Positions 16,539-41,135 are shown, numbered from the stretch's first letter. The stretch is 64,000 nucleotides of DNA from Trueperaceae bacterium (GCA_965213705.1 OZ243913.1:4096001-4160000), one strand, 5' to 3'. The notes: generated by a model from the sequence alone, not told the origin. A program made the numbers and translations.

Positions 16539-16901
16539 GGGGACGACCAGGTTTCGACGGGGGTCAATGAGGGTGAGGTTGCAGGCCGGGGATGGTGGTT
16601 GGCCCCGTAAAAATCCACCAAAGCCATTAACTGGCAAACAACAGCCCAACTGGGCTCTTGCTGCGTAACCAATCGTAGCGTGTCCGCCGCCTGATCGCCG
16701 TTGTTGGGTGACCGGACATCATTTAGACGGCTCGGTTTAGGTTTCGCATGTTGAACCTAGACGACGTTAAAGACGTGTAAGCCTCGGCACAACGCCTGCT
16801 CGTGAGCCGAGCCGGGGCCGACAATTTGATCAGGAGCTAAGCCTGTAGACGCCCATCTGAAGGGCCTTCGGACGCGGGTTCGACTCCCGCCGTCTCCACC
16901 A
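16539..16901 (+). ncRNA. ssrA: tmRNA; tag peptide (A)GKQQPNWALAA at 16633-16668
   Basis: 5' GGGGACG...GGTTTCGAC; 3' T-arm GGTTCGACTCC and CGTCTCCACCA; resume codon after TAACT; tag ends ALAA-stop. Confidence 0.97.
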
Positions 16902-24859: not shown

Positions 24860-25234
24860 CCTTTGAGGAAGCTAGAAACGAAGTGGACTCGAGTGTCTTC
24901 AGCACTCGAGCCCACACTTTTGGCTTATAGAGGTTTAGAGTTTCAAGCCGACAGATACGCTCCTTTCTTCCCAAACGCGACAACCCAAAGGCACCAAAGT
25001 TTTACTGCACACCGTGGGGTTTTGGGTAACTCAGCCGCTTTGCCAAAGTTCGCCCACGAGTGGCGACAAGTCGTAGCGGCTGGGCCTCAAGCTTTAACGT
25101 TTGGGACAGAAATTTCTCAATGAGCAGTCTGATTTGACAAAAAGCTATCCAGCAGGTTCGTCATGTTTTTTACGACCTACCAGACTTTCTTCTACTTTTT
25201 ATAGCCATTTCAAGGGGATGGCTAACTGCTCATT
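24860..25234 (-). ncRNA. Candidate long structured leader / ncRNA
   Basis: Multiple nested inverted repeats; TTGCTG-N17-TATAAC promoter at 25270-25242. Confidence 0.45.
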
Positions 25235-25876
25235 AGGTGAGGTTATAGCAGAGGAGCTTAACGCCAGCAAGTGAGGTGAACAGCAAACGGCTGTCGGATT
25301 CGCTGCAAAACTTAGTCTTCCATCCATTGACTATGCAAATTCACGCTTATTCGGGGTATAGGTCTGTAGGTGAGACACGCTGAGTAGCGGAACGGCCAGA
25401 TTTGCAAGCAGTATTACGTCTAGGTGGTTACCTGACAACACCTCTCTCAAAATGTTTGGTCGTGTACTTCGCGAAATCGAACTCCGGTTGCCAAAGCCAC
25501 AACTTATTCACCTATGTGCTGTTTCTTAGGACACTAGCAGAATGACGAAGTTTTGCCAAGAAAGCTCTATTAGGCTTCTAAACAGCGTTTATCGCTGTAT
25601 GTCCGACTTTTCGCGGTAGCTGCTTGCCCATACCCAAATTCCGTCCATTTGCCAATTATGGTGAGCAAAGCTCCGTTTGCGCCAAGCCATCTGCCGGTGA
25701 CTTTTCAATCGCAATGCCAACTACTCCAACTTATGGCAGGCTCTCAAAGTGTCGCCGTCGTAAGCTGCTTTCCAAACTCTTGTTCAACCTAACCGTGAGG
25801 AGAAGTGGCGGAAGCCGGCCTGACAGGGTTCCCATACCTGTATTTAGCTGTGCCGGGAATCTCGGCTGGCAGTCCC

Positions 25877-25898
25877 TTGTAACCGGATGGTGTGACAA
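25877..25898 (+). promoter_or_regulatory. Palindromic operator (WYL-type candidate) upstream of the peptide gene
   Basis: TTGTAACCGGATGGTGTGACAA; 19/22 identical to 29182-29203. Confidence 0.65.
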
Positions 25899-26010
25899 AC
25901 GACCTTCAAACTGACTGAGACGTTAGCGACGTCACGCGTATAGGCCTAGCGACACCACAAACTGCTTTTCTCCCTAGGCGCCCGGAGATGGTAGGAGAAA
26001 AGAGGTTGGT

Positions 26011-26151
26011 ATGAGAAGGCTCGCTTTGTTAGCTCTGGTGCTCATCGGCACTGCAGTGACCACCGTTACTTCCGTTCTTACAGAAGGGCTGGGCGGTTCG
26101 AACCAAGTTTTGCTCGCCGACGGTGACGACTACGACACAGGTAGCGGTTAG
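26011..26151 (+). CDS. 46-aa secreted propeptide (candidate signalling-peptide precursor)
   Basis: MRRLALLALVLIGTAVTTVTSVLTEGLGGSNQVLLADGDDYDTGSG; basic N-terminus plus hydrophobic core; purine-rich RBS; below the ORF-track cutoff. Confidence 0.75.
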   Translation: MRRLALLALVLIGTAVTTVTSVLTEGLGGSNQVLLADGDDYDTGSG

Positions 26152-26163
26152 ACATATCGCATT

Positions 26164-29040
26164 CTAGGGGAGGTGGGGAAGCTCAGAAGTCCCCGCCTCC
26201 TCCAAAATGGATAAAATCAGGGTTGCAACCTGCTCCGACGGTAAATCGCACCAAACCGGTGTACCGTCGTAACTCGGCAAACCTTGAAAAACCTTTCTGT
26301 CCGCATAAACCATGTAGGGCGTTTTGGCCTTACAGTAGGCGTATAGGTCTGCGCTCAGCCCGCACAGGGAATTCTTGGTCCCGGCCTGCAGGACGCCCAC
26401 GAGATGGTGCAAGATGATGGGGTCGCTCTGCGTCCACCGAGCTTTTTTAAGCCCTGCACGGTAGTGTTCAAGAGCACGTTGAGGCTCGTCCTCCAGCAGG
26501 TGGACGGCTCCCAACGTCCCGTGCGCTCTCACCTCCTTGCCGATCGAGCGCTGGGCCCGAGCCTCGGTGAGAACCTCGTAACCGAGCTGTTCGGCACGCT
26601 CGCGGCGGCCCTCGAGGGCGAACAGGTGAGCGAGTTTCGCCCGGCTGAGGAGCGCCCAGTGCGCGAGGCCGAGCGCTTTTGCGCAGTCTGAGGCCTGCTC
26701 GAGCCTGAGGCGCGCCTCCAAGGTGTTACCGGTTTCCAGGGCCAACCAGCCGCCGACATAGTTGCACCAAATCTTTTTAGCCGCTATGCCTTGCTGGTCG
26801 AAGAGGTGTTCGGCCGCCGCGAGGCGCGACCGGGCTTCGGCGTAGTCGCCCCGATTGACGGCGTTGATGGCGAGGTTGGTAAGCGCGCTGGCCGCTTCGC
26901 CCGAATCCGGTTCGGCGTAAGTGAAGGCTGTTTCGAAGTAGCCGCGGGCTTCAGCGAAGCGGCCCAGCGAGTCGTAGGCCGCGCCGAGCGTGTTCAAGCA
27001 GGTCTCTCGCGCGCACCCACCACTCAGCGTCAGCGCTGCCTCGGCGGTATGAACGGCTTCAGCGTAACGGCTCGAGCGCAGCAAAAACCAGGCCCGACTT
27101 GCTTGCAAAGCCACAGCCATACCCTTATCTTGCAGAGCCGCGGCCGCTTCCTCGACAAGCTCGAGGCCCTGCTGCGGGCGTGAGTGCAGGTCGTACAGGC
27201 GTTGCAAGGTGGGCAGGGCAGGTTGCAGGACGTGCATCCACTCCTGCCGAACGGCCCAGCGCCAAGCTGCGGCGATGTTGGCCGAACTGGTTTGAAAATC
27301 GACTTTACCCTTCGAGCCTGGCGGCTTTTCCGAGGGTCGCTCGGGCTGCGCTGCGGCTTGCAAGGCCGTCAGATAAAAGGTCGCGTGCCGACTCCGCAAG
27401 GCTGCCTTAGCGGGATGACGTTCGTACAGGTAGCGCGCGAGCAGCGGATGCAAGCTGTAGCGGTCGCGCTCGAAACTCAGGAGCGAGGCGTCTAATAAGC
27501 GCCTCAAGTGCCGAGGTTTCGCCCCGAGAAGCTGTTCGGCAGCCGAGAGAGAAAAACCGCCCCGAAACACGCTCAGCTCGCGAAAGACGGTGGCCGTTTC
27601 CGCGTCGAGGAGAGTGACCGAAAGGTCGAAGGCGGCGTTCAAGTCTTCCCCGTCCGCAGCGCTCAGCGCGCCCAAGTCGGACCTCGAGCGCTCTACAAGC
27701 TCGGCGAGCGGCAGGCTCGCCGTCCAACCCGCGACGAGCTTGAGGGCGAGTGGGACACCGACTGTGTGCCGACACAGCTCGAGCAGCAGCGGTGCATCCT
27801 CGTCGCTGAAAACCGCCCCTTGCCGCGCCGCCGAACTCAGGAAGAGCTTGCCCGCCGCGCTCCGGCCGAGCTGGGCCAGCGTACTTCCCTGGGGCGGCAA
27901 ACTCAAACCGCTCAGGCGAAAAACCCGTTCGTCCTCGAGCCCGAGCCGTTCGCGTGAGGTCACGAGAATTCGCAACTCGGAACAGGCGCGCAAAAGTTGC
28001 CCGATGACGCCCCTCAGCTGGAGCAAGGCCTCGAAATTGTCGAGCACGAGGAGAATGCGCGGCGCGGCGAGGTGCCCGGTCACGGCTTCGGTCAGGTATT
28101 CGAGCTGCGGCTTCACACCGAGCGCGTCGGCCAAAGCTTGCCACAGCGCGCCAGCGGGCGCGTCTTGCGGGAGGTCGGCCAAAGGTACCAGTGCAATTTC
28201 GTCGAAAAGAGACTCGCTTTGCTGCACGAAGGCTTTGGCAAGCTCCGTTTTACCGATGCCGGCCAATCCCGTAACGGTCACCAGGCGTTCTCCGGCCAGA
28301 AAGTGCTCGTGCAGCTGCGTCAACTCGGCCTCGCGGCCGACGAACAGAGACGTCACGCCGACTTCTTGACGAGGCCGACCTCCCTTTACGCTCACCCTAC
28401 TCGCGAAGCCGCCGTGCCACTCGGCCGTTGCACGCTGCACAGCGTCGGCATCGGCGGGGAAACCCAGCTCGAGCAAAAGCCGGTGCATTCGCTCCACGTT
28501 GTAGAGGCTGGGCAGCGCCACACCGTGCGGCAACCGAAAAGCCCGCAGCACCAACGCGCGCGCTCCCGCCGCCTCGCCCTGCCGCCGGCGCTCTTCGGCA
28601 AGGGTCAGCAAAACGTCGGCAAAGCTGTTTTGCAGGGTTGCACGCTCAATACTCAGCCACTCGCTCACCTCTTCCCCGAGCCGTAGGCGCGTCTCCTCGA
28701 GCCCGTACAGAAACGGCCCCCGGTACAGCGCCACAGCGCGTTCGTACTCTTTTTGGGTAAGGGCGCGCCGAAACTCGGCCGCGTCCACGGGCACATGGCA
28801 GCCGAGTCGCCCGCGCCCCGACTCGAGCAGGTTCGGGTCCAGCTTTTTGAGCCGACGCAGCGCCTCTGAAAGGCTTTTGCTGCGCCTAGTCGCGTCTATT
28901 TGATGGGGCCAGAACAGGGCTTGCAGTTCTTTGCGCAAGCATGTGTCATGCAGCGCAACGTAAGTCAGCAACAAAAGAGGTTGGGGCTCGGCAAAGTCGC
29001 TGCCCTCGAGCCTCAAACCTCCTAACGTCACCAGCCGCAT
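26164..29040 (-). CDS. AfsR/SARP-type regulator: wHTH-BTAD, NB-ARC, TPR
   Basis: LFWP...LYRGPFL (BTAD); FVGREAEL, GLAGIGKT, LVLDNFE, TSRE, GVPLAL, LHPLL; TPR-like C-terminus; TATAAC-N6-ATG leaderless start. Confidence 0.92.
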   Translation of the reverse strand: MRLVTLGGLRLEGSDFAEPQPLLLLTYVALHDTCLRKELQALFWPHQIDATRRSKSLSEALRRLKKLDPNLLESGRGRLGCHVPVDAAEFRRALTQKEYERAVALYRGPFLYGLEETRLRLGEEVSEWLSIERATLQNSFADVLLTLAEERRRQGEAAGARALVLRAFRLPHGVALPSLYNVERMHRLLLELGFPADADAVQRATAEWHGGFASRVSVKGGRPRQEVGVTSLFVGREAELTQLHEHFLAGERLVTVTGLAGIGKTELAKAFVQQSESLFDEIALVPLADLPQDAPAGALWQALADALGVKPQLEYLTEAVTGHLAAPRILLVLDNFEALLQLRGVIGQLLRACSELRILVTSRERLGLEDERVFRLSGLSLPPQGSTLAQLGRSAAGKLFLSSAARQGAVFSDEDAPLLLELCRHTVGVPLALKLVAGWTASLPLAELVERSRSDLGALSAADGEDLNAAFDLSVTLLDAETATVFRELSVFRGGFSLSAAEQLLGAKPRHLRRLLDASLLSFERDRYSLHPLLARYLYERHPAKAALRSRHATFYLTALQAAAQPERPSEKPPGSKGKVDFQTSSANIAAAWRWAVRQEWMHVLQPALPTLQRLYDLHSRPQQGLELVEEAAAALQDKGMAVALQASRAWFLLRSSRYAEAVHTAEAALTLSGGCARETCLNTLGAAYDSLGRFAEARGYFETAFTYAEPDSGEAASALTNLAINAVNRGDYAEARSRLAAAEHLFDQQGIAAKKIWCNYVGGWLALETGNTLEARLRLEQASDCAKALGLAHWALLSRAKLAHLFALEGRRERAEQLGYEVLTEARAQRSIGKEVRAHGTLGAVHLLEDEPQRALEHYRAGLKKARWTQSDPIILHHLVGVLQAGTKNSLCGLSADLYAYCKAKTPYMVYADRKVFQGLPSYDGTPVWCDLPSEQVATLILSILEEAGTSELPHLP

Positions 29041-29077
29041 TCTGCGGTTATAGCACGTAGGCCGTAGACGTGGTGGC

Positions 29078-29101
29078 AGCCTCGTTGGAACGTCGTTGGA
29101 A
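29078..29101 (+). promoter_or_regulatory. 11-bp-period direct repeat TCGTTGGAA (SARP-type activator site)
   Basis: AGCCTCGTTGGAACGTCGTTGGAA; 22/24 identical to 39520-39543; 10 nt before TATGAC. Confidence 0.7.
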
Positions 29102-29180
29102 AACCGCGTGCTATGACCAGAAGCATGTTGAGCACGTTCGACGGCGGCGTTTCTCTCACCGCTTATAAGTTCTATCAGGG

Positions 29181-29204
29181 GTTGTCACCAGAGGGTGTGA
29201 CAAC
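29181..29204 (+). promoter_or_regulatory. Palindromic operator GTTGTCAC-N8-GTGACAAC (WYL-type candidate)
   Basis: Perfect 8-bp arms; TGTGAC-N10-TACCGT-N6-ATG(29224). Confidence 0.7.
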
Positions 29205-29223
29205 GCCTCTTTACCGTGAGGCC

Positions 29224-29982
29224 ATGAAGCCTTCTTTTTCTTACAGCCTCAGCCACACGCTCCGCTGCCCTCGCCGCTTTCACTCAGAGAAGTTGCAAAA
29301 GGAACCCGTCCTCGCTCCGTTCGCCTCGAGCACCCTCGGGCGCGAGGTTCACGTGCGCGTCGCCGCCAGCCTCCACAGGGGTACACCCGCCGACGAACGC
29401 TCTTTCCGCTTGCCGAAGCGCGTCTTGTTGCAAGCCGGAGAAAACCTCGACGACCTCGTCTGGCGCGCTCACTGCGCCCTCAGCTTTTACAACGCCAAGT
29501 GCCGCGCCTGGCTCGCCAGGAAAACCACGACCTGTGTTGAGCACTACGTCAGCCGCCCCTACCCACTTCAAAGCGAGACCGTGCAAGTGAGTGGTATTTT
29601 CGACCTCGTTCTTTCTAGCGCCAAAGGAGACGTGCTCATCGACTGGAAAACGGGCAGCGCGCAGCGCAGCGAAGACCAGCTCAAGTTTTACCTCATGCTG
29701 CGCTTTTTAGAAACCGGGCGGCGACCCCGGCACGCCGAGGCGGTGGCGTTAGGGACGGGCGAGCCTTTGTGCATCGTTTGGGACAGCGAGGTAGAACCTT
29801 GGTTCGAAGACAAGCTCGAGGCGATGCGCCGCGACCTGGCCGCTTGCCATACGCGCGCGGCCGTCCCAGGGTTTCACTGCACCTACTGCCCTTACGCGCA
29901 GCGCTGCGAGGCCAGCGAAGCGCCGAACAGATGGGTGCTCGACACTTTTACCGGGGAGGTGACGCACCTTGGGCAAGCGTGA
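29224..29982 (+). CDS. Cas4/RecB-like PD-(D/E)XK nuclease with Fe-S cysteines (alternative in-frame starts 29113/29125)
   Basis: CPRRF, G..VH, GIFDLV, IDWKTG, QLKFY, CTYCPYAQRC. Confidence 0.88.
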   Translation: MKPSFSYSLSHTLRCPRRFHSEKLQKEPVLAPFASSTLGREVHVRVAASLHRGTPADERSFRLPKRVLLQAGENLDDLVWRAHCALSFYNAKCRAWLARKTTTCVEHYVSRPYPLQSETVQVSGIFDLVLSSAKGDVLIDWKTGSAQRSEDQLKFYLMLRFLETGRRPRHAEAVALGTGEPLCIVWDSEVEPWFEDKLEAMRRDLAACHTRAAVPGFHCTYCPYAQRCEASEAPNRWVLDTFTGEVTHLGQA

Positions 29983-30937
29983 AAAAGGCGAGGCGACGCT
30001 GAGGCTCGTCGAATTCGTCGACTACCTCCGCGAACACCCGGAGCAACACAAGGTTGCGGCCTTAGCGGGGCACTTCGGGGTCGACCGTAATCAAATTTAC
30101 CGCTGGGCCAAGTACGCTTATGACCGTTACGGCATTCCCATCGACCTGCCGCCCTTGGTCGAACGCGGCTGCGTCAAACTCGGTGAGGGCGACCACGCGC
30201 TCAAACGAGTCACCTTGGACAGAATCGAAGTCGAGGCGCTGCTCGCAGCCGCCGTCCGCATCGAAGCCTTGACCCCCTATGCCAGACAAGCCCTCGACAA
30301 GCTCGAGGATGCCCGGCGCTTGCCCGAAGACACCCTGCAAGACCCCGTCCTCTACAGCCCGCTCATGGACGAATACGCCCCCGAACTCTTCGAGCGCGTC
30401 GTCAAAGCCGTCAGAGACTACCGAGTAGCACAGGTCAGCTACACCAACGCACGGGGCGAGCGAAAAACGTATCTCTTCAACAGCTACGCGCTCATCGCGG
30501 ACGGGCAGCACCTTTACCTGGTCGGTATCGCCCACAGCAGCCTAGAGGCCGGTTACGACACGGTCATCCCCTTACGCCTCGACCAGATAGAGCACTTCGT
30601 CCTTCAACAAGGTTCGTTCAAAAAACCGTCTTTCGACGCGAAAACCTACGCGCTCAGAGAGTTCGGCCCGTTCAAAGCCGAGGGAGAGGTGCTCAGCATC
30701 AAAGTTCGGTTTTCTGCTGAAAAAGCTCGCTACATCGAGCGCACCAGGCGGCACGAGAGCCAAAGGTGTGTAAAGCATGCGGACGGCACGCTTCTGTGGA
30801 GCATCAGCGCGCCGCTGAACGACGCGCTCGTTTACTGGATTACGAGCTACGGGCCGCACGCCACGGTGCTCGAGCCCGAGGAGCTGAGAGAACAGGTGCT
30901 CGAGTGGGCGCAGGGGAGTGTCAATGCCAATTCATAG
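29969..30937 (+). CDS. HTH-WYL-WCX transcriptional regulator
   Basis: N-terminal HTH; YTNARGE...LYLVG...LRLDQI; WITSYGPHATVLEPEELR. Confidence 0.9.
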   Translation: MGKREKGEATLRLVEFVDYLREHPEQHKVAALAGHFGVDRNQIYRWAKYAYDRYGIPIDLPPLVERGCVKLGEGDHALKRVTLDRIEVEALLAAAVRIEALTPYARQALDKLEDARRLPEDTLQDPVLYSPLMDEYAPELFERVVKAVRDYRVAQVSYTNARGERKTYLFNSYALIADGQHLYLVGIAHSSLEAGYDTVIPLRLDQIEHFVLQQGSFKKPSFDAKTYALREFGPFKAEGEVLSIKVRFSAEKARYIERTRRHESQRCVKHADGTLLWSISAPLNDALVYWITSYGPHATVLEPEELREQVLEWAQGSVNANS

Positions 30938-31737: not shown

Positions 31738-33804
31738 ATGAGAGCCGCATTGAGCCTAACTCTACTCGAGGCCTGGTCAAAACGCTACACGGGAGGCCTG
31801 AATTTTGCCTTGCCAGAGGGTTGGCAACTCGCCACTCACCAAAAAGAGGTGTATGACACGCTGCACGAGCCTGATATAGATGTTGTGTTTGATACGGCGA
31901 TGACCGGGGACGGGAAGAGTTTAGCCGCTTATTTACCCATGCTTCGCCCGCAGGCTAAACGGCTGGGTAATGCTGTAGTCGCCTATCCAACCAATGAACT
32001 CATTCGCGACCAGGAAAGGCAGGTTAAAAACTACTTGGATGATTTCTCTGTTGACTTGAGCTTCCAAAAACTCAACGGAGAAACTATAGGAAGCGTGGCT
32101 AAGGAAAACGAAGTATCCCGCTACGAGTCAATTAAAGATTTGGTCTACAGGCAAAAGCTTCTGCTGACCAATCCCGATGTTTTTAATCTTATCGAAAGCT
32201 TTGCCTACACTAGCCCTATCAATCCGGCAACGCTTGCCCAAGAGTTTTCCAGCCTCTTTCGTTATGTGGTTTTTGACGAGTTTCACATTTTTGCGGCTCC
32301 GCAGATAGCCGCGATTATCGACGCCATGCTGTTCATTCGGGCAAACGGCAGTGCGAACTTTCCGACTAAGTTTCTATTTCTGTCGGCAACCCCGAGCCCC
32401 ATTCTCAGAGACGTCCTGGACAACGCTGATTTCAGGTTCCGAGTTATCGAGGGAAGCTACCAACACGGTCCCAAACCCAAAGGTGCTTACCGAAGCATTT
32501 TGCAAGAGGCAACCCTCGAGCTTGAACCCTGCGAGGCAAATACTGGTGGCATTTTGGGGTGGGCAACAAACAATCTCGAGAAAATCAAAGGGTTTTATCG
32601 TGAGAATCCGGGAAGTAAAGGGTTGATTATCTGTAACAGCGTATTTACGGCAAAAAAGCTGTATGCCTATTTGCGAGAGGGCTTGGTCGATACGGGAATC
32701 TCTTTAGGTGAAAATACAGGTTTGACGGGCAAGGAAGAAAAGCAAAGGTCATTAGAGCAAGACCTTGTTGTGGCGACATCAACAGTGGACGTTGGTGTCG
32801 ATTTCCGCATCAACTTTCTTATTTTTGAGTCTTTGAATGCCGGTTCTTTTATTCAACGTTTGGGTCGTTTGGGCAGACATAAAGATTTTCCTGTCTATCA
32901 CGCAGTAGCGCTATTGCCACAGTTTTTGGTTGAACGCTTTGCAAAGCATTATCAAGATGGGCAGACGGTTGACAGATGGTCTTTTTTTCAAAACTTGAGT
33001 GAGATTAAAGACGATAAAGCCGAGCAAATTTTTCCGCCGGAACAGGAGTTCAAGCCTTATATCAAACGTTGGGGCGGTGTCAAGGCAGTTCAGCGTCTAG
33101 GCAAGCTCTATAAGTATGGGGGTAAGGACAAATATCAGACACTTATACAGCGCTATCAACCGAATGCCGCTCAGGTTTTCAAGATTGCGAGCACAACCCA
33201 GGCTCGAGCAAGGCGACTTGAACCGGCTGTAAACAAAGAACTGTTCTCCTTCCGGGGTGCCGGACTGATGGACATCTGGACCTTTGACCCTTCTTCAAAA
33301 GCAGTAACTACGGTAAATGTTCTAAGGCTTTTGGCGGGGACAGAGTTTGGGTTGATCAGCAAACAAGAAGCGGAAGCTATCGCCATAATACACAGCACGC
33401 CTTTTTATCCAACTTACCTGAATCTCTACGCCAAAATCCACAGCTATAAGGAGGAGTACGACTTTGTTCAACTCCGCTATCAGCACACTTTTGGAGATGA
33501 TGGTCAAGCTTTCAATCACGCAGCAGACCGCGCCGGGTTTTTACTAGAAGCCGCTCATCCCGATATTCGCAAGGTGAGCCAAGCTCTCGTCAACAAACCT
33601 CTCTGCAGTTGCGTATGTGATAAAGAGCTGAGTGGTGAAAGCCCGCGAAACGCCCAAAGAATTTTGAGTTTGCCACCCCTGTTCAGTTTGGCCCAGGTCA
33701 TCGATAGCACCAACACTTCCTATACCGTTGCCTTTGGTCACGAAGCCCTTCTGCTGGACAGCCTTATTCACTGGCGAAAAATAAACGACTATTTCATTGC
33801 TTGA
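31738..33804 (+). CDS. cas3: Type I-D helicase Cas3' (no HD domain)
   Basis: TAMTGDGKS, YPTNEL, FDEFH, LSAT, STVDVGVD, QRLGRLGRH. Confidence 0.95.
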   Translation: MRAALSLTLLEAWSKRYTGGLNFALPEGWQLATHQKEVYDTLHEPDIDVVFDTAMTGDGKSLAAYLPMLRPQAKRLGNAVVAYPTNELIRDQERQVKNYLDDFSVDLSFQKLNGETIGSVAKENEVSRYESIKDLVYRQKLLLTNPDVFNLIESFAYTSPINPATLAQEFSSLFRYVVFDEFHIFAAPQIAAIIDAMLFIRANGSANFPTKFLFLSATPSPILRDVLDNADFRFRVIEGSYQHGPKPKGAYRSILQEATLELEPCEANTGGILGWATNNLEKIKGFYRENPGSKGLIICNSVFTAKKLYAYLREGLVDTGISLGENTGLTGKEEKQRSLEQDLVVATSTVDVGVDFRINFLIFESLNAGSFIQRLGRLGRHKDFPVYHAVALLPQFLVERFAKHYQDGQTVDRWSFFQNLSEIKDDKAEQIFPPEQEFKPYIKRWGGVKAVQRLGKLYKYGGKDKYQTLIQRYQPNAAQVFKIASTTQARARRLEPAVNKELFSFRGAGLMDIWTFDPSSKAVTTVNVLRLLAGTEFGLISKQEAEAIAIIHSTPFYPTYLNLYAKIHSYKEEYDFVQLRYQHTFGDDGQAFNHAADRAGFLLEAAHPDIRKVSQALVNKPLCSCVCDKELSGESPRNAQRILSLPPLFSLAQVIDSTNTSYTVAFGHEALLLDSLIHWRKINDYFIA

Positions 33805-33815
33805 AAGGAGTAGTA

Positions 33816-36800
33816 ATGGATGAAAACGAAGACATCTTAACCGAGTTCAACTTTGAAGACTGGGAAGAGCCTTTAGAACCAAAGGCTTATGAGCAGGTAC
33901 AAAGGCCCCCATTTGCAAAACTCATACTCGACACGGTTCAGGATGCGCCCTCAGCGCTTCAGGATTGGGCAGAACTGGTTGTACCTAAGCTTCTCAGTGT
34001 TCTGGCGCTGCGTAACGCGAAAGGCATGGGCGAGGTCGAAGCGAATCGGTTCTTGGGAAAAACGGATTTCAAGTCAGGTCAGGCTCGAGCCAAAGCGTTC
34101 AAAAAATTAACCGAAATGCCCGATCAAAGTCTCGCCGTTCACACCCTGAATGCGGCTTTGGGTGGCTGGACGGTCGTTGCGCTTGCGAACCTTGATGATT
34201 TCGAGCAACGCCTGTATTTAGCAGGGATAACCTTGCACGACCTCAACAAGATGTTGGGAACAACTCTGCGTTTGCAGGGTGAGCAGAAAGAGGCCTTTGA
34301 GGAAGCTTTCAAAGCCTGGGCTGAACGCCTTGGCCTTTGGCAATTTATAGGCGAAAACCACTGGGCCGATGTTGCTTACTTGGCTCAAAACGCAGAAGCC
34401 GTCAAGGGTGAGAACCGCACACTCTTCAACTACGACCAGTTGCAAACATCACCGGAAGACTTGGAGCCTATCAGCGATTTTGTTCGCTTGGCCGATCTCC
34501 TGGCAAGCGCAGCCAAACACCCTGACGACGTTTTAAACATGGGAGGCGGCAATAAAGTCATAGAAACGCTTCGGCGCGTTCTACGGGGGAAATATATACT
34601 TCGTTACCACAAAACCGCCGACAACCGTGGCTTACTCACCCAACTGATTCACAATGCTGTTTTAGAGCAAGCCCAAGAGAAGGGTTGGCTACCTTTCCTG
34701 TACTTTCCCGACGGCGTGACTTACTTAGTCCCTAAAGAAGCGGAGAACATCAATCTCGAAGACGTTCCCCAGCGAGTTAGGCAAATGCTTGTAGAGTCCG
34801 TAGCCGACAAGCTGGGTCAACTGGTGGCTCGAGCCCCCACCGGAATGCGTTACAAGCCCGAATTTATCGAACTTTTGACACCTGCTCGAGCTTGCAAGTT
34901 GGCAATCCAAAGGATTTTGGAGATTATCAGCGACAAAAAGCCTCCCGTGACCGACGAGCGAAAGGCGAAGACTGTACTCCGCAAAGATGCCACGGTCAAG
35001 CTCGATTTTGACTATGGCGCTTCTCTGAACGCCGACCGATTGGCGGAAGGCTTGTTCGGTGTGTCGAAAATAATCTTCGACTATTACGGGGATGATAGAG
35101 AGACACATGGGGGGTCCCTCATTTGCGCACTTGGGCTGGGGGATTTGGTAGAGACATTCAGGTCTATCGAATTTACAGGCGGCGTGGGTTATCCCTGGTA
35201 CTACATCGGGGGTCACTACATACACCGCAATCCCGGCTTAGATGCCAACGACGTTGAAAACGTGATGCAAAAAGCGGTAACTCAGGTTTTAGGCGACCTC
35301 GGTGAACCGAAAAAAGAGCCCCCTTTCGGCTTTTTGGAAAGTTACATCGGCCAAACACTCAGCACAGGCACCGAGCGTGAAGCATGGAACTTCTCGGGCG
35401 AGTTGGAGCGGTATGTCGTCAGTAAAAAACTACGCAGTGGACAGCGAGTTTGTGCAGTCTGCAACAGTAGCTTTGCTGTAAGAGCAGACTACTCGACATT
35501 TTCTAATAAGCAAGTTGCAGGCTACGCCGATGCGCGCCGCGGTATCTGTCAGATCTGTCAGGCCGAAAATCTACTGCGCCGCTTCACGCTCGGAAAAGAC
35601 ATGCTGTCAGATGACGGCACGAAGTTCTTGCATCTCTACCCAACTTACTTCTTTACACCTATCACAGCGAAGGTGATGCAACACGCCTATCAATCTTTCA
35701 AACAAGCCACTTTTGCCGAAATTGCCAAACCTTATCAGCAAGCCGATTACGAGGTCAGGGCGATTCTCCATGCTGACGTTTTCCAGGTTTTGAAAGCCGA
35801 TAACCCCAAAAGACGACTTGACAGAGTGGACTATCCCGAGGGACAGATGCACGGTTACTTCCTGCTCGGAGTTCCGTACTTGGGGCGCGACCCGAGCGAT
35901 ACCGAGACGTGGGTCATGCCTGCGCTGCTGGCGCTGCTTTCCCCTTTACTGTTCGGCACGAAAGCTGTGGTCAGCGATTCGGCTTTACCGCTGTTTACGA
36001 GCGGTGCGGACTTTCCCGAGACGGTCGTTCTCGACGCGCCCCACAGCTTTTGGCAGCACGGCATAAAGAAAACGAGGTTTCGTCTGGATGAACTCGAGAA
36101 AGGTTTGCATACAGTATTGGCACTTTACGGTTTGGTCAGCGAAGCCTACAAAGACGGCAAGGGTTATGCCATTTGGAATCAGCTCGGCTCGGTGGCTCGA
36201 AACCTCGACTCCGAACCTCTAAGCATCTTCGGCTACGCGGACCGTATCAGCTCACAGCTCAGCAAGGGAAAAAGCACCCTCACAAGCACCGACGGCATGT
36301 CTCCTTGGTTGGCTCAACGTTTAACAACCTACTACGAATCAACGCTGGACTTCTACGAAACTTACTCTTTAGGAGGTACATCAAGAATGGGATTGATTCA
36401 GGAAACCGTCGATAAATATGCGAAGTTTTACAGGGCGCGAGGCTCGAGTTCGGCTTATGCAAGATTGCGTCCCTTGGACGACGCTATCAAAGTTATTCTG
36501 GCTGCACCGACAGAAGAGCAACTCGACCAAGAAAGCTTGCACCTTGAAATTATGGGGGCGCTGATGGCATATCTAGGCAGAATTAGAGATAGAGATCCAT
36601 CGATTAAAGGCATCATTCCTAAAGGTATGTGGAGTGATGATGTCCTACTCCCTGCGGTGAGCGACTTTGCAACCCACATGTTGGACAAGGTGTTTTGTGA
36701 CTTCGCCGGAGGTGACAGGGCAATTTTGAGGAAGCAACTCAACAAGTTCAAAAATGGTTGTGAAGCTTACTACGTTCTTCATTACGGAAGAAAAAAGACG

Positions 36801-36845
36801 GATGAAAGCGCCTCTACAGAAAATCACGAAAAGGAGAGTAGCTGA
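33816..36845 (+). CDS. cas10d: Type I-D large subunit Cas10d (Csc3) with N-terminal HD nuclease
   Basis: DQSLAVHTLN, LHDLNK, LADLLAS, CAVC...CQIC, HLYPTYFFT; AAGGAG RBS. Confidence 0.95.
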   Translation: MDENEDILTEFNFEDWEEPLEPKAYEQVQRPPFAKLILDTVQDAPSALQDWAELVVPKLLSVLALRNAKGMGEVEANRFLGKTDFKSGQARAKAFKKLTEMPDQSLAVHTLNAALGGWTVVALANLDDFEQRLYLAGITLHDLNKMLGTTLRLQGEQKEAFEEAFKAWAERLGLWQFIGENHWADVAYLAQNAEAVKGENRTLFNYDQLQTSPEDLEPISDFVRLADLLASAAKHPDDVLNMGGGNKVIETLRRVLRGKYILRYHKTADNRGLLTQLIHNAVLEQAQEKGWLPFLYFPDGVTYLVPKEAENINLEDVPQRVRQMLVESVADKLGQLVARAPTGMRYKPEFIELLTPARACKLAIQRILEIISDKKPPVTDERKAKTVLRKDATVKLDFDYGASLNADRLAEGLFGVSKIIFDYYGDDRETHGGSLICALGLGDLVETFRSIEFTGGVGYPWYYIGGHYIHRNPGLDANDVENVMQKAVTQVLGDLGEPKKEPPFGFLESYIGQTLSTGTEREAWNFSGELERYVVSKKLRSGQRVCAVCNSSFAVRADYSTFSNKQVAGYADARRGICQICQAENLLRRFTLGKDMLSDDGTKFLHLYPTYFFTPITAKVMQHAYQSFKQATFAEIAKPYQQADYEVRAILHADVFQVLKADNPKRRLDRVDYPEGQMHGYFLLGVPYLGRDPSDTETWVMPALLALLSPLLFGTKAVVSDSALPLFTSGADFPETVVLDAPHSFWQHGIKKTRFRLDELEKGLHTVLALYGLVSEAYKDGKGYAIWNQLGSVARNLDSEPLSIFGYADRISSQLSKGKSTLTSTDGMSPWLAQRLTTYYESTLDFYETYSLGGTSRMGLIQETVDKYAKFYRARGSSSAYARLRPLDDAIKVILAAPTEEQLDQESLHLEIMGALMAYLGRIRDRDPSIKGIIPKGMWSDDVLLPAVSDFATHMLDKVFCDFAGGDRAILRKQLNKFKNGCEAYYVLHYGRKKTDESASTENHEKESS
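36387..36845 (+). CDS. cas11d: Cas11d small subunit from an internal start in cas10d
   Basis: In-frame ATG (MGLIQETVDKYAKFY) preceded by AGGAGG at 36371-36376. Confidence 0.8.
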   Translation: MGLIQETVDKYAKFYRARGSSSAYARLRPLDDAIKVILAAPTEEQLDQESLHLEIMGALMAYLGRIRDRDPSIKGIIPKGMWSDDVLLPAVSDFATHMLDKVFCDFAGGDRAILRKQLNKFKNGCEAYYVLHYGRKKTDESASTENHEKESS

Positions 36846-37771
36846 TGTTCGACGCATATGAAAAATACTTCCATACGGCAATCCCTCTGCGCCCCGGTGC
36901 AAAGTACGCCCACATCCTAGTTCTCCGCAAAACGGAAAGTTACGCAGTTTTCAAAACAGATGGCGAACTCAACACTGCTAGGGTTAGCTCGGGTCTCGAG
37001 GATAAAACACAAATCTCACGCTTGACGATTTTCAAACGCAAACAGACCACCCCCGAGCGCTTGACAGGCCGAGAGATTTTGCGCCGTTACGAACTCTTAC
37101 CCGCTGACGACCAGTACAACGTGAACTTCACACCCGACTCGCCCGACTCGGTCATTTACGGCTACGCTATTGGTGATTCGGGGTCTGAAAAGTCGAAGGT
37201 CTATGTAGACACAGCCTTTTCTCTCACCAACTACGACGTTTCCCACGAAACGATGACGCTGAACGCGCCTTACGAGGACGGCACCATGACGCGGGGCAGC
37301 AGCACCACAAACCGTTTTAGCGAACAAGACCATGTTCTGCCGGAAGTTTATTTTCCGAGCGTCGTCACCGTTCGAGACCCTACCCAAAATACGCTTGCTT
37401 ACGTCATCAACAACATCAGACGTACCAAACGTTACGGCGCACAAACAACGCGAACCGGACAAGTGTCCAACCAAATCGTCGGCCTTATCTTTGCCGACGG
37501 GGAGATTTTCAGCAATTTACGGCTTGTCCAAGCGATGCACGACCTTTTGGAAAGCGACAAAACCCTCAGCCAAGACGCTGCGATGGTACAGGTCGCCCGC
37601 GACCTCGTAGCACGCGACGGCGTCATTTACGAACTGGTCACGGGTGAACAGCTCGAGGTGTTGCTCACCGAACTCGATGCTGTTTTTACGGATGAAACGC
37701 AGTTGAAAACCTTTTTGACCGACCTCTACAGCGAAACGAAAGCCTACGCTGAATCCGTGAAAAACCAGTAG
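36845..37771 (+). CDS. cas7: Type I-D Cas7d (Csc2)
   Basis: FKRKQTTPER.TGRE, YGYAIG, RYGAQTTRTG. Confidence 0.95.
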   Translation: MFDAYEKYFHTAIPLRPGAKYAHILVLRKTESYAVFKTDGELNTARVSSGLEDKTQISRLTIFKRKQTTPERLTGREILRRYELLPADDQYNVNFTPDSPDSVIYGYAIGDSGSEKSKVYVDTAFSLTNYDVSHETMTLNAPYEDGTMTRGSSTTNRFSEQDHVLPEVYFPSVVTVRDPTQNTLAYVINNIRRTKRYGAQTTRTGQVSNQIVGLIFADGEIFSNLRLVQAMHDLLESDKTLSQDAAMVQVARDLVARDGVIYELVTGEQLEVLLTELDAVFTDETQLKTFLTDLYSETKAYAESVKNQ

Positions 37772-37776
37772 CAGTT

Positions 37777-38433
37777 ATGCATGCTTACCACCTAGAGATT
37801 GACTTACATGACCTCATGTACTACGCTTCTCGCGAACTGGGGCGCATGTACATCAGTGAGCGCTATATCCACAATTACGCGCTGACCTACGCCTTGGGTT
37901 TAGCTAAGAGTGGCTATCACGACGCGGTTCAGGTGCCTCACTACCGAGAAGACTTGGAACCTCTGAATGACGCTGGAGTTTATGTCACTCCTGCCAAACC
38001 CATCCGTGTGGAAACGTCTACGCATACGTTCAAGCTCGCAGACACTCGGTACCAGGTCAAAATGGAGCAGTCGAGCGTCAACATTCCCACCTTTGGACGC
38101 ATTCGCGAGATAAACCCCGAATCGCGTTATGAAGCCTTCGTTCTTACGAAGGAGAAGCTCGAGCTTCCCAAGTGGATTCGGCTTGGTAAGTGGATGAGCA
38201 AAGCCTCGGTAGCAACTGCAGAAGTCGAAGTGAGTGAGGGAAAGAAAACGTTTAGCACTTTGCACCCTCTCAATGGTCTCGACTTACCTTTCGACGCGAA
38301 GCTTTACGACCTTATCAACATGCCTCCGGTCTCTCTTATCGAAAATGCAAGGTTTGAGGGCGAGTGCTACACCCTGAAGCTGAGCGAGAAAGAGACTCGC
38401 GAGTTTCCAAAAGGACTAAGGTACACCTTCTAA
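37777..38433 (+). CDS. cas5: Type I-D Cas5d (Csc1)
   Basis: ASRELGR, IHNYALTYALG, PKWIRLGKWMSKA, MPPVSL. Confidence 0.95.
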   Translation: MHAYHLEIDLHDLMYYASRELGRMYISERYIHNYALTYALGLAKSGYHDAVQVPHYREDLEPLNDAGVYVTPAKPIRVETSTHTFKLADTRYQVKMEQSSVNIPTFGRIREINPESRYEAFVLTKEKLELPKWIRLGKWMSKASVATAEVEVSEGKKTFSTLHPLNGLDLPFDAKLYDLINMPPVSLIENARFEGECYTLKLSEKETREFPKGLRYTF

Positions 38434-39233
38434 TGCCCCATGCTTTCCTCCTCCACCTCACCCCCACCACCCGCGCCCCCGACCACCCCTACCTCCACCA
38501 GTACACCCACGGCCTCTTCTATCACCTGTTGGAAACCATTCATCCCGCGCTGAGCGCCGACATTCATGCCAGCAAGCGCAACCCCTTCACGCTTTGGGCC
38601 AGGGAAAAGGACGGCGGCATCTTGCTGCGCGTGACCGTCCTGAACGATACCCTCTTTCAATCGCTGCTCGAGGTGGTGTTGCAAGAATCCTTGACGGGCC
38701 TGGAGCTGGGCCAGGACAGCTACCGGGTGGCGAGGGTATTAGCGACGCCGGAAGGCCACCGGGACGCGGGCTTCTTAGGCTGGGAAGATGTTTTATGTGC
38801 CCGGCCCGTGAACAGGCTCGAGCTGCGCTTCGTCACGCCGACGGTGTTTGCGACCTCGAAAGGGAAAAAGCGGCACTACACGCCGCTACCCCTGCCGAGG
38901 CTGGTGCTGAAAAGTTTGCTGAACGCCTTTCAAGCCTACAGCCCCGCGCCCTACAGCGAGCCGGAAGCGGCGGGGTTGGAGGCTATGTTCGACGAACTGT
39001 TCGTCGTCACAAGTCACGATATTGCCACAAAGCCCCACAAAGCGGGCAAGGTCAGGCTGACCGGCTTCGTGGGGCGGGCGAGCATTCGCTATCAAGAGGC
39101 GTCGGGGCGGGTCGAGAAAGCGCTCGGGCAGCTTGCCAGCCTCGTCTTTTTCAGCGGGGTGGGGGCGAAGACGCCTTACGGGATGGGGCAGGTGCGTGTA
39201 AAGGTTGGAAGCGGGCAAGTTGGTAGCAAGTAA
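38433..39233 (+). CDS. cas6: CRISPR endoribonuclease Cas6
   Basis: F.TPT.F, GFVG, C-terminal G-loop FSGVGAKTPYGMG. Confidence 0.95.
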   Translation: MPHAFLLHLTPTTRAPDHPYLHQYTHGLFYHLLETIHPALSADIHASKRNPFTLWAREKDGGILLRVTVLNDTLFQSLLEVVLQESLTGLELGQDSYRVARVLATPEGHRDAGFLGWEDVLCARPVNRLELRFVTPTVFATSKGKKRHYTPLPLPRLVLKSLLNAFQAYSPAPYSEPEAAGLEAMFDELFVVTSHDIATKPHKAGKVRLTGFVGRASIRYQEASGRVEKALGQLASLVFFSGVGAKTPYGMGQVRVKVGSGQVGSK

Positions 39234-39266: not shown

Positions 39267-39464
39267 GTGAACGAGTTCGAGCTTTTGAACAGAATAACCC
39301 TCGACCCCGACATCTGTCACGGCAAACCTTGTATCAGAGGGTTGCGCTATCCCGTCGAGACGATTCTGGAACTTTTAGGGAGCGGCATGTCCTTCGGGGA
39401 TCTTTTGGACGACTACGAAGACCTCGAGCGCGAGGACTTGCAGGCAGCTCTAATCTGGCAATAA
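39267..39464 (+). CDS. DUF433-family protein (antitoxin-like; partner absent)
   Basis: RITLDPDICHGKPCIRGLR...ILELL..G. Confidence 0.85.
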   Translation: MNEFELLNRITLDPDICHGKPCIRGLRYPVETILELLGSGMSFGDLLDDYEDLEREDLQAALIWQ

Positions 39465-39519: not shown

Positions 39520-39543
39520 AGCCTCGTTGGAAGCTCGTTGGAA
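39520..39543 (+). promoter_or_regulatory. 11-bp-period direct repeat TCGTTGGAA upstream of cas4
   Basis: AGCCTCGTTGGAAGCTCGTTGGAA; 10 nt before TACGCT. Confidence 0.7.
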
Positions 39544-39600
39544 CGCCGTCGTTTACGCTTGTCTCGAGCCCGAGACGCCTATCCGATGTACGGAGGTTCT

Positions 39601-40161
39601 ATGGAATATTTGCCCATCAGCAAAATCAACACGGTCGTTTTTTGCCCGCGCCGCTACTACATCGAGCAGCTTTTGGCGGACACCGTGACGAACTATCACA
39701 TGACCGAGGGCACGGCGCTGCACGAGCGCACGGTGCGGACAGGCGAAGGCGTGTGGGTGTGGAGCAACTGCCTGGGCGTCAGCGGGATTATCGATCAGGT
39801 CGTACACGAGGACGGCGAGTGGGTCATCACCGAGTTCAAAAAGGGCTACCTCGGTGAGCACGAGAGCGACCGGGTGCAACTCTGCGCGCTCGCAGTTTGC
39901 TATGAGGAGGTTCACGGCGTGCATCTGAGTCACGGCTACATCTACTACCACCGCACCCGCAGGCGCAGCTTGGTCGAATACACACCCGAGCTGCGGCAGC
40001 GGGTCGAGGCGGCGGTCGCCCTGATGCGTAGGCTCGAGCAGCAAAGCCACTACCCGCCGGTCATCGACAACCCCAACAAATGCCAAGGGTGCAGCGTGCG
40101 CGAACCCTGCCAGCCGACGCTGACGCGCAGGCAGTTACCCCGCTGGAAGGGAGCAGTGTGA
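39601..40161 (+). CDS. cas4: CRISPR-associated Cas4
   Basis: FCPRR, G..LH, GIID, EFKKG, QLCA, CQGCSVREPC; GGAGG RBS. Confidence 0.95.
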   Translation: MEYLPISKINTVVFCPRRYYIEQLLADTVTNYHMTEGTALHERTVRTGEGVWVWSNCLGVSGIIDQVVHEDGEWVITEFKKGYLGEHESDRVQLCALAVCYEEVHGVHLSHGYIYYHRTRRRSLVEYTPELRQRVEAAVALMRRLEQQSHYPPVIDNPNKCQGCSVREPCQPTLTRRQLPRWKGAV

Positions 40162-41135
40162 TGGGTACGCTCTACGTTTTAGAACCTGACGTCTACCTGT
40201 CCAAAGACGGCGGCGTGCTGAAAGTTTCGCGCAGCAAGGGGCGGGAGGTGCTTCTCGAGCGCCCCCTGGCCCACGTGTCCGACGTGGTGATTTTGGGCCG
40301 GGCGACGGTCACTTCGTCGGCCCTTCAAGCCTGCGCCGAGCAGGGCACGGCGATTCACTACCTCACCCGCGGCGGCAAGTACGTGGCGCAGGTCGCCCCC
40401 GTCGAAAACAAAAACGTGCTGGTGCGCATCAAGCAGTACGAAGCGTACCTAAACCCCGAGTGGAAACACAGCTTGGCGCGGCGTTTTGTCGAGGGCAAGC
40501 TCGCCAACGCTATCGTCTTCGCGCGGCGGGGAGGCGCGGAGGTGGGCAGTTTGATGGCGCTCGTCAAACCTATCGCAAGGTGCGACAATACGGAAGCCTT
40601 GCGGGGGCTCGAGGGCAACGCCGCCCGGCTCTACTTCGGCCTCTTGAAAGACAAGTTCCCGGCAGCGTTCGCGCCCGAGTCGCGCAGTAAACGCCCGCCA
40701 CGCGACCGCGCCAACAGCTTGCTGTCGCTCGCCTACACCTTTTTAGCCAAAGAATGCCAGACGGCGGTCCGGGTGGCCGGGCTCGACCCGTATGTGGGCT
40801 ACCTGCACGAAGCCAAGTACGGCAAACCCGCCCTCGCCCTGGACCTGATGGAAGAGTTCCGCTCTATCATCGCCGACTCGGTGACGCTGACGCTCTTCAA
40901 CCGCGGCATGATTACCGAAGACATGTTCGAAGACGAGCGCGGCTATCCGACCCTGGCCGACGAAGGCTTCAAGCAGTTTTTACGAGCCTGGGAAGACCGC
41001 CTCAACCAACAGGTACACCACCCGTACCTCAAACAAAAGCTCGACTACCGGCAGGTGCTGGTGGCGCAGGCGCGCATTTTGGGCAAGCACCTCATGGGCG
41101 AACTGCCGGAGTATCTCCCCTTTACCGTGCGCTGA
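40161..41135 (+). CDS. cas1: CRISPR integrase Cas1
   Basis: RGLEGNAARLYF, NSLLSLAY, GLDPYVGYLH, LALDLMEEFR. Confidence 0.97.
   Translation: MGTLYVLEPDVYLSKDGGVLKVSRSKGREVLLERPLAHVSDVVILGRATVTSSALQACAEQGTAIHYLTRGGKYVAQVAPVENKNVLVRIKQYEAYLNPEWKHSLARRFVEGKLANAIVFARRGGAEVGSLMALVKPIARCDNTEALRGLEGNAARLYFGLLKDKFPAAFAPESRSKRPPRDRANSLLSLAYTFLAKECQTAVRVAGLDPYVGYLHEAKYGKPALALDLMEEFRSIIADSVTLTLFNRGMITEDMFEDERGYPTLADEGFKQFLRAWEDRLNQQVHHPYLKQKLDYRQVLVAQARILGKHLMGELPEYLPFTVR

Follow-up and report, generated by a model that had tools for sequence, protein, structure and literature searches.

At the head of a type I-D CRISPR-Cas locus in a member of the Trueperaceae (Deinococcota; GCA_965213705.1 OZ243913.1:4096001-4160000), within a stretch of 64,000 nucleotides (nt) that was analysed as a whole and is called the window hereafter, a conserved gene for a propeptide of 46 amino acids (aa) lies tail-to-tail with the gene of a 958-aa AfsR-type large SARP regulator. 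Based on sequence comparisons across the family, we tentatively propose, with a probability of about 0.4, that the predicted exported peptide is the signal for the TPR sensor of this convergent SARP-NOD-TPR regulator, which would then turn the cas promoters on.

The small gene and its junction with the regulator

The gene runs from an ATG at 26011 to 26151 on the plus strand, and its product, MRRLALLALVLIGTAVTTVTSVLTEGLGGSNQVLLADGDDYDTGSG, consists of an n-region (MRR), a hydrophobic core, a variable linker and the C-terminus DGDDYDTGSG. Re-reading of the window sequence bore out this open reading frame (ORF), which an initial annotation had singled out, and the exact peptide is already present as a called gene in a public protein collection. 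Homologues of 41-51 aa, convergent with an orthologous regulator, occur in seven of 128 Trueperaceae genomes belonging to five genera (the window, G004, G023, G073, G029, G122 and G121); full gene context is readable at four of these peptide loci, and three of the loci lie on short contigs. Two subfamilies can be told apart by the peptide tail, which reads DDYDTG[GS]G in subfamily A (the window, G023, G004 and G073) and GDYNTGGG or GDYDSGGG in subfamily B.

Searching for the peptide with tblastn in 61 related genomes gave two matches below E 1e-4 (G023 and G004), with all others above E 0.09. Both sit convergent and immediately past the regulator stop codon, and the same two genomes hold the only full-length regulator orthologues among the 61 (48% and 51% identity, respectively; next best 35%). 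A profile made from three peptides added a fourth member (G073) when run against the 128 family genomes, its other seven matches (E <= 0.01) being partial and confined to the N-termini of long ORFs, and it recovered no further peptide from 364 genomes of the phylum. Run on 5.8 billion protein clusters, the profile returned seven proteins of 42-51 aa, the window's own among them; six of these end in DYDTGGG and that of the window in DYDTGSG. Three more divergent peptides were found by position or motif, with the tail ..YLSDGGDYNTGGG in G029 and identically in G122, and ..DGGDYDSGGG in G121. G001, a relative from the same genus, lacks both the peptide and an orthologue of the regulator. When a degenerate DNA pattern covering tail and stop codon was run against 185,579 species genomes, four stretches were obtained, three of which are the known Trueperaceae loci; the fourth, inside a 253-aa ORF of an Acidobacteriota metagenome-assembled genome, was discarded as a chance match. 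Metagenome scans with the regulator alignment found no locus, and those with the peptide-tail DNA pattern gave six stretches, none of them peptide-like.

The comparisons show the 46-aa ORF to be a genuine and conserved gene, as had been supposed before any homologue was at hand: its homologues occupy the same convergent position, the ratio of non-synonymous to synonymous substitution rates (dN/dS) is 0.21-0.35 in the four pairs with computable dS (dS is saturated in two of the six pairs), and the single open frame common to all four subfamily-A genomes is that of the peptide. Differences in the last 10 codons affect 2-5 of about 6 synonymous sites vs 1-3 of about 22 non-synonymous sites. The start codon is conserved, and a Shine-Dalgarno sequence, AAGGAG or GAGG, precedes it by 6-8 nt.

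The 11 peptide sequences at hand (41-51 aa) have one common layout, i.e., M[RK], a hydrophobic core about 15 residues long, a stretch rich in proline and alanine (..TPALIAG..), a variable linker and a tail that is near-invariant at its extreme C-terminus, [SA]DG[DGN]DY[DN][TS]G[GS]G. The best-kept part is the soluble C-terminal octapeptide and not the hydrophobic segment; its DY motif might undergo tyrosine sulfation. Two ABC substrate-binding proteins encoded in the same family of bacteria (one sugar-binding, one peptide-binding) have N-termini that align with profile positions 1-33, which lends indirect support, by sequence likeness, to a Sec signal peptide. Both the signal-peptide-like N-terminus and the C-terminal tail read from the window sequence are mirrored in the homologues. 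The peptide has no cysteine and therefore no lipobox, so it is not a lipoprotein.

The two stop codons are separated by 12 nt (26152-26163), exactly the distance reported initially for the peptide and the convergent regulator. In all seven genomes the tail-to-tail junction is kept within narrow bounds, from a 4-nt overlap of the reading frames up to a gap of 28 nt, and the flanks of the pair vary, with an array upstream in three genomes, none in the window and other genes in G122. A scan of 30 regulator-family loci (one of them, counted as negative, from the unpublished genome G033) for small ORFs beside homologous regulators, as the initial annotation had suggested, found the peptide confined to orthologous or subfamily-B regulators: all four loci with such a regulator carry it, in one further locus the ORF is hydrophobic but unrelated, and the other 25 lack one. 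These pairing counts leave out the contigs of three divergent regulator orthologues (P0013, P0014 and P0016; 41-45% identity). The scored subfamily-B regulator (G029) is about 33% identical to that of the window, and, judged from the aligned sequences, peptide tail and regulator subfamily diverge together.

A GC-rich hairpin (26167-26202, both strands) follows directly after the peptide stop codon, over the last codons of the regulator (..EEAG..). It has a z-score of -4.66 in the window and of -3.4 to -6.3 across the subfamily-A loci (window, G023, G004 and G073), where none of 200 shuffled sequences folds as well; the hairpin is absent from the two subfamily-B loci tested (z -0.5 and -0.7). 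It is likely a shared bidirectional terminator, and the terminator scan of the window found no qualifying T-run at 26167-26202. A second hairpin lies in the 5' untranslated region (UTR) of the peptide gene (25965-26002, plus strand), with the arms CTTTTCTCC (25965-25973) and GGAGAAAAG (25994-26002) and a conserved core, TCTCC...GGAGA. Its arms are exactly as first described and pair in the minimum-energy fold, but the fold of the entire 116-nt leader cannot be told from that of shuffled sequences (z -0.11; 91 of 200 reach a fold at least as good), and among the six loci compared the 5-bp stem UCUCC/GGAGA alone is retained, with no compensatory pairs.

The AfsR-type regulator and two candidate operators

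The regulator gene (26164-29040, minus strand) encodes an OmpR-type DNA-binding domain and BTAD (residues 1-210), a NOD/NB-ARC module (about 230-560) and a TPR sensor with a C-terminal cap (about 585-950); orthologues measure 887 aa in G029 and 924-973 aa elsewhere. Pfam places AAA_22, AAA_16 and NB-ARC at 230-440 (NB-ARC 23.6 bits vs a cut-off of 23.5; Walker A motif GLAGIGKT) and TPR_2, TPR_1 and TPR_12 at 650-708. BTAD was detected in the N-terminal 225 residues at E 1.3e-4, its 22.7 bits narrowly passing the cut-off of 22.1, and six of 15 homologues match it as well. A profile built from 88 members of the family matches AfsR (8k60, 8jke) with E 1.6e-46, profile positions 160-898 covering AfsR residues 197-978. 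Structural models agree: for the N-terminal 225 residues (pLDDT 91.5), the six best PDB fold matches by Foldseek are all AfsR or EmbR (E 5.9e-6 to 2.7e-3, TM 0.54-0.63; AfsR E 5.9e-6 to 2.9e-5), the best AfsR match having a TM of 0.56 and EmbR one of 0.63, and the AlphaFold model of the full regulator (pLDDT 92.5), which has a helical repeat array at 586-905 and no membrane segment, gives STAND/NLR proteins as top fold matches. Sequence-only PDB searches, by phmmer with the regulator and by a profile of its N-terminal domain, gave no SARP match. Since family profile, fold matches and Pfam domains agree, the regulator is an AfsR-type large SARP (SARP-NOD-TPR), and the BTAD-NB-ARC-TPR string given initially was right. 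An identity as an antiviral STAND protein (Avs) was considered and rejected, as PADLOC gives no match, the N-terminus is a DNA-binding SARP domain and Avs3 appears as a generic fold match at rank 30.

A -10-like TATAAC (29047-29052, minus strand) stands 6 nt ahead of the regulator ATG, probably a leaderless-type start; the four subfamily-A genomes all show gtgcTATAAc, 6-7 nt and then the regulator ATG. Similar boxes occur 5-11 nt before the ATG of several genes of these loci, i.e., the regulator (29040), the Cas4-like gene (29224) and the subfamily-B cas4 (L097 845; L098 1546), and such short distances suggest leaderless messenger RNAs.

Two kinds of repeated DNA element were found around the pair. 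The first is a 22-bp palindrome with the consensus TTGTMAC-N8-GTGACAA, of which the 4.25-Mb genome has two zero-mismatch sites (chance expectation of such a site in the window, 0.16). One copy, TTGTAAC-N8-GTGACAA (25877-25898, both strands), overlaps the -35 region of the peptide promoter, whose putative -10-like box, CAAACT (25907-25912, plus strand), keeps the same offset across genomes: the palindrome ends 8 nt before CAAACT, CATACT (three genomes), TATTGT or AATACT (G023) in six genomes. It is present upstream of the peptide gene in all six genomes scanned and was also seen at the G121 gene. The other copy (29182-29203, both strands) is followed after 8 nt by TACCGT (29212-29217) and after 20 nt by the ATG at 29224, an arrangement repeated in four genomes as palindrome, 8 nt, TACCGT or TACCCT, 6 nt and the ATG that opens the Cas4-like (or WYL) gene.

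The second element is a pair of 8-nt direct repeats, TCGTTGGAAnnTCGTTGGA, with an 11-bp period, for which there are exactly two sites in the whole genome. Site 1, TCGTTGGAAcgTCGTTGGA (29082-29100, plus strand), is followed after 11 nt by TATGAC (29112-29117) and, directed away from the regulator gene, faces the Cas4-like/WYL/cas3-cas10d operon; site 2, TCGTTGGAAgcTCGTTGGA (39524-39542, plus strand), is followed after 11 nt by TACGCT (39554-39559) and faces cas4-cas1. G004, G023 and G073 have repeats at the same two places. In subfamily B (G029 and G122) the repeats read ACTGGAAnnnnACTGGAA, followed by 10 nt and TAnnnn, and are found in the divergent promoter of the regulator and directly before cas4-cas1. 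All 13 repeat sites known from six genomes have TA at the same offset, 10-11 nt on. A third subfamily-B copy in G122 (L096, G122:C403 219-236), followed by 10 nt and TAAGCG, lies on a contig that also has a Cas6-like gene and a 185-aa ORF and may mark a further target promoter.

Known SARP targets have direct repeats with a spacing of 11 or 22 bp, the 3' repeat lying 8 bp from the -10 box, together with a poor -35 element, according to the part of PMC10936776 that treats them. With the change of regulator subfamily the repeat unit goes from TCGTTGGA to ACTGGAA, and the palindrome stays unchanged. As the repeats co-vary with the regulator and the palindrome is constant, we infer that the SARP domain binds the repeats and would activate both cas promoters, in keeping with the family rule, and that the palindrome is bound by another protein, in the simplest case the WYL regulator of the locus, which would control both the peptide gene and its own operon.

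A proposed peptide circuit and its alternatives

In the circuit that we propose, a WYL-controlled promoter with the palindrome would make the propeptide; Sec would export it, and cleavage would yield a C-terminal peptide with the end ..DGDDYDTGGG. After re-import the peptide would bind the TPR sensor and release the NOD switch, and the SARP regulator would then activate the distal promoter of the cas operon and the cas4-cas1 adaptation promoter. The signal would be relayed from cells in which WYL fires to their neighbours, and these would raise interference and spacer acquisition. The same elements can be read as an alarm, in which WYL fires in infected or damaged cells, an acidic peptide of about 10-20 residues with a DYDTGGG end is secreted and the NLR-like receptor of neighbouring cells activates interference and cas4-cas1; in this full form we regard the idea as unlikely.

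Several points weigh against a role of the peptide as ligand. The peptide promoter carries the palindrome and not the SARP repeats, so the peptide looks co-regulated with the cas genes and not auto-induced by its neighbour; judged from the promoter sequences, there is no sign of the positive feedback usual in peptide quorum sensing. A membrane anchor is an equally good reading of the hydrophobic N-terminus. The assignment of each protein to its element rests on co-variation and family rules, the spacing between the repeats and the -10 box of the regulator varies (15-29 nt), and generic scans of 25700-26400 call neither a sigma-70 promoter nor an intrinsic terminator around the ORF. The peptide-bearing sample is also small and its members are kin, not independent (seven related genomes from five genera). 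Finally, AfsR-type TPR domains have no known peptide ligand as far as the pertinent passages of PMC10936776 go.

This last point, like the makeup of the peptide promoter, which has the palindrome and spacing of the WYL/cas operon promoter, would also be expected if the small protein belonged to the CRISPR-Cas/WYL regulon as a micro-protein, exported or anchored in the membrane, that does not serve as ligand of the regulator and adjoins it merely because both belong to the same locus head. Such a protein might have an acidic tail that binds Ca2+ or another metal, interfere at the envelope with phage adsorption or signal to another receptor. The N-terminal MRR or MK, by the positive-inside rule, would put the acidic tail outside the cell, and the regulator model has no membrane segment. 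However, mere co-residence in a locus head sits badly with a junction held at -4 to +28 nt in seven of seven genomes despite differing flanks, and with a peptide tail that changes together with the regulator subfamily. We consider a micro-protein of this kind somewhat unlikely.

A type I-toxin-like or addiction element, in which a transmembrane helix with a charged tail stabilises the CRISPR-Cas locus as CreTA guards do, appears quite improbable. Fst and Hok offer the model for its layout and CreTA for the guarding role. Control would come from the 3'-overlapping transcription of the convergent regulator and from the 5'-UTR hairpin near the ribosome-binding site, and the convergent 3'-overlapping layout with its strong shared hairpin, the stem beside the ribosome-binding site, the shortness of a protein that is hydrophobic in its N-terminal half and acidic in its tail, and the place inside a CRISPR-Cas locus would all suit such an element. 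On the other hand, conservation peaks in the soluble octapeptide instead of the hydrophobic segment, the N-terminus aligns with true signal peptides, PADLOC has no match and subfamily B does without the 3' hairpin. That the ORF is not translated, the conserved block being non-coding DNA or RNA of a CRISPR leader or of the regulator 3' end, is very improbable: the peptide has no Pfam, NCBIfam or PADLOC family and no Atlas relative scoring >= 0.9, and it adjoins CRISPR leaders in three genomes, but the frame is the sole open one in the four subfamily-A genomes, with dN/dS of 0.21-0.35 and near-saturated synonymous change over an invariant tail, the start codon and Shine-Dalgarno sequence are conserved, and the window keeps the gene without an upstream array.

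The CRISPR-Cas locus and related systems

The cas genes run divergently from the regulator, with the Cas4-like gene nearest and the array last. The Cas4-like PD-(D/E)XK nuclease gene (29224-29982, plus strand; start moved from 29113 to 29224) matches the cas4 model with E 1.5e-6, below its cut-off, and is followed on the same strand by the HTH-WYL-WCX regulator (29969-30937; PADLOC WYL E 1.3e-33), the candidate palindrome binder, orthologues of which occupy the same place in G004, G023 and G073. Next come the type I-D interference genes cas3', cas10d/csc3, csc2, csc1 and cas6 (31738-39233, plus strand), assigned by family models (Cas10d/Csc3 TIGR03174 E 2.4e-99; Csc1 TIGR03159 E 1.4e-57; Pfam Csc2 E 2.1e-101), the adaptation genes cas4 (start at MEYLPISK) and cas1 (39601-41135, plus strand) and a CRISPR array of 34 repeats of 36 nt (41636-44016, plus strand). 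The locus therefore has the makeup of type I-D (Cas10d/Csc3, Csc2, Csc1, Cas3', Cas6 and array), and the same set is found in G004 and G023. In all four loci with readable context the pair forms the front of a type I CRISPR-Cas locus with WYL regulator, cas genes and array; Cas10d occurs in four of the 128 family genomes, each of which has the peptide.

In G073 (L069, G073:C2 3187-15232) the same head of regulator, peptide, WYL and operator precedes a different type I cas set, with proteins of 770, 290 and 268 aa that have no family match and a 910-aa Cas3 closest to type I-G models, so the regulatory module seems portable between effector types. In G004, G023 and G073 the peptide gene is preceded, at a distance of about 350-900 nt, by an array oriented away from it. 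Where these three relatives hold the array, the window has about 900 nt with no convincing ORF (24983-25876) and with a lower G+C (0.53), and the region 24900-25876 resembles neither the other loci nor the CRISPR leader of the window. Within the array of the window, the same 19 nt stand ahead of two CRISPR repeats (41688-41742 vs 42112-42166), suggesting that a spacer end or a whole spacer was duplicated. Between cas6 and cas4 lies a 65-aa ORF (39267-39464, plus strand), just before SARP-type repeat site 2, with no NCBIfam match, which we take to resemble DUF433-type antitoxin-like proteins. A CreTA-type guard was also sought and set aside: the best repeat-like match near the peptide gene is 20 of 36 (shuffle maxima have a mean of 18.8 and reach 23), and the best spacer complementarity to the gene is 23 of 35, a raw count with no shuffle baseline.

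The placement of the pair on a mobile element, also part of the initial annotation, did not hold up: it is flanked by no integrase, transposase or phage gene and its setting is the head of a CRISPR-Cas locus. The ORFs scanned in the window showed no integrase, and 16500-64000 contains neither a direct repeat of the 3' end of the tmRNA nor another att-like pair, so a mobile element is unsupported beyond the usual patchiness of CRISPR-Cas. The tmRNA gene (16539-16901, plus strand; Rfam 180 bits, E 1e-71), 9 kb away from the pair, is the sole match in the whole window at Rfam gathering thresholds, with no riboswitch or other known RNA. Genes for DUF6915, DUF2201 (VWA-like metallopeptidase), a MoxR-type AAA protein and DUF932 follow straight after it on the minus strand and may form an island at ssrA. 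A second large STAND protein of 988 aa (13057-16023, minus strand) has the reversed order AAA_16, TPR and, towards the C-terminus, Trans_reg_C (OmpR-type), with a PADLOC 'TPR' match of E 1.2e-10.

If the peptide is the ligand, the pair would work by analogy with RRNPP systems, for which we compared Rap/Phr, NprR/NprX, PlcR/PapR, PrgX, Rgg/SHP and AimR/AimP. As in these, a small propeptide gene lies directly beside a cytoplasmic TPR transcription regulator, the propeptide has an export-like N-terminus and conservation at its extreme C-terminus, candidate target genes are adjacent, and peptide and receptor diversify together. The RRNPP signature is laid out, in the relevant part of PMC10075063, as five features that include a propeptide of 10-100 aa, its secretion through the Sec translocon (by SignalP) or a match to SHP, and a receptor of about 250-500 aa. 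Three of the five are found here (a propeptide of 41-51 aa, TPRs in the receptor, directly neighbouring genes), whereas the receptor, at 958 aa, far exceeds the length given. The receptor also combines a DNA-binding SARP domain of OmpR type with a NOD ATPase, where RRNPP receptors have an XRE-type HTH, the host belongs to the Deinococcota and not the Firmicutes, the genes are convergent, and peptide binding and import are predictions. Because of the receptor length and its different DNA-binding domain, NOD and phylum, the pair is not a member of RRNPP, and the label non-RRNPP first given to it was apt.

The closest relative of the regulator is AfsR of Streptomyces coelicolor (PDB 8k60, 8jke and 8hvr), with which it shares the order SARP (ODB+BTA)-NOD-TPR, by profile and fold, and candidate targets with two direct repeats of 11-bp period just upstream of the -10 element and no good -35, as described in the promoter passages of PMC10936776. 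In contrast to AfsR, identity across the SARP domain being about 20%, the Trueperaceae protein has cas promoters instead of antibiotic clusters as candidate targets and is paired with a small gene for a predicted exported peptide, which the AfsR passages of PMC10936776 do not mention. The discussion of that paper also describes PafBC, with a -26 element and sigma adaptation, which serves as a comparison for the WYL protein. The WYL protein recalls Sll7009, a negative regulator in type I-D whose signal is given as unknown in the part of PMC10212523 concerned, in that an HTH-WYL-WCX regulator heads a type I-D locus, but the Sll7009 setting differs in that the Trueperaceae locus adds a second, SARP-type regulator, the peptide gene and a shared 22-bp palindrome as candidate WYL site. 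Acyl-homoserine lactone (AHL) quorum sensing raises cas expression, interference and adaptation in Serratia and Pseudomonas, as reported in the portion of PMC5179492 that deals with it. Here too cell-cell signalling would raise cas expression; AHL, however, comes from a global LuxI/R-type system encoded elsewhere, whereas a dedicated peptide-receptor pair would lie inside the locus itself.

How CRISPR-Cas systems sense the time to switch on, and above all to acquire spacers, is largely an open question, and this locus presents a compact five-part circuit for it, with two regulators, two operators that each occur twice in the genome and a tiny peptide gene. AHL control of CRISPR-Cas and WYL regulators of type I-D are already known from the cited parts of PMC5179492 and PMC10212523, respectively, and a literature term search found no SARP/STAND regulator or peptide gene described as part of a CRISPR-Cas locus, which is not proof of absence. 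Even if the peptide is no ligand, one would not expect to see cas promoters in Deinococcota wired to an AfsR-type SARP. If it is the ligand, peptide quorum sensing would no longer be confined to the RRNPP family or to Firmicutes, AfsR-type SARPs would have a class of ligand for their enigmatic TPR sensor, and immunity would spread between cells through a signal encoded in the locus. Should the alarm form be true, signalling in the RRNPP style would exist outside Firmicutes, and the peptide would be the first dedicated pheromone for CRISPR immunity and the first peptide ligand of an AfsR-type STAND regulator.

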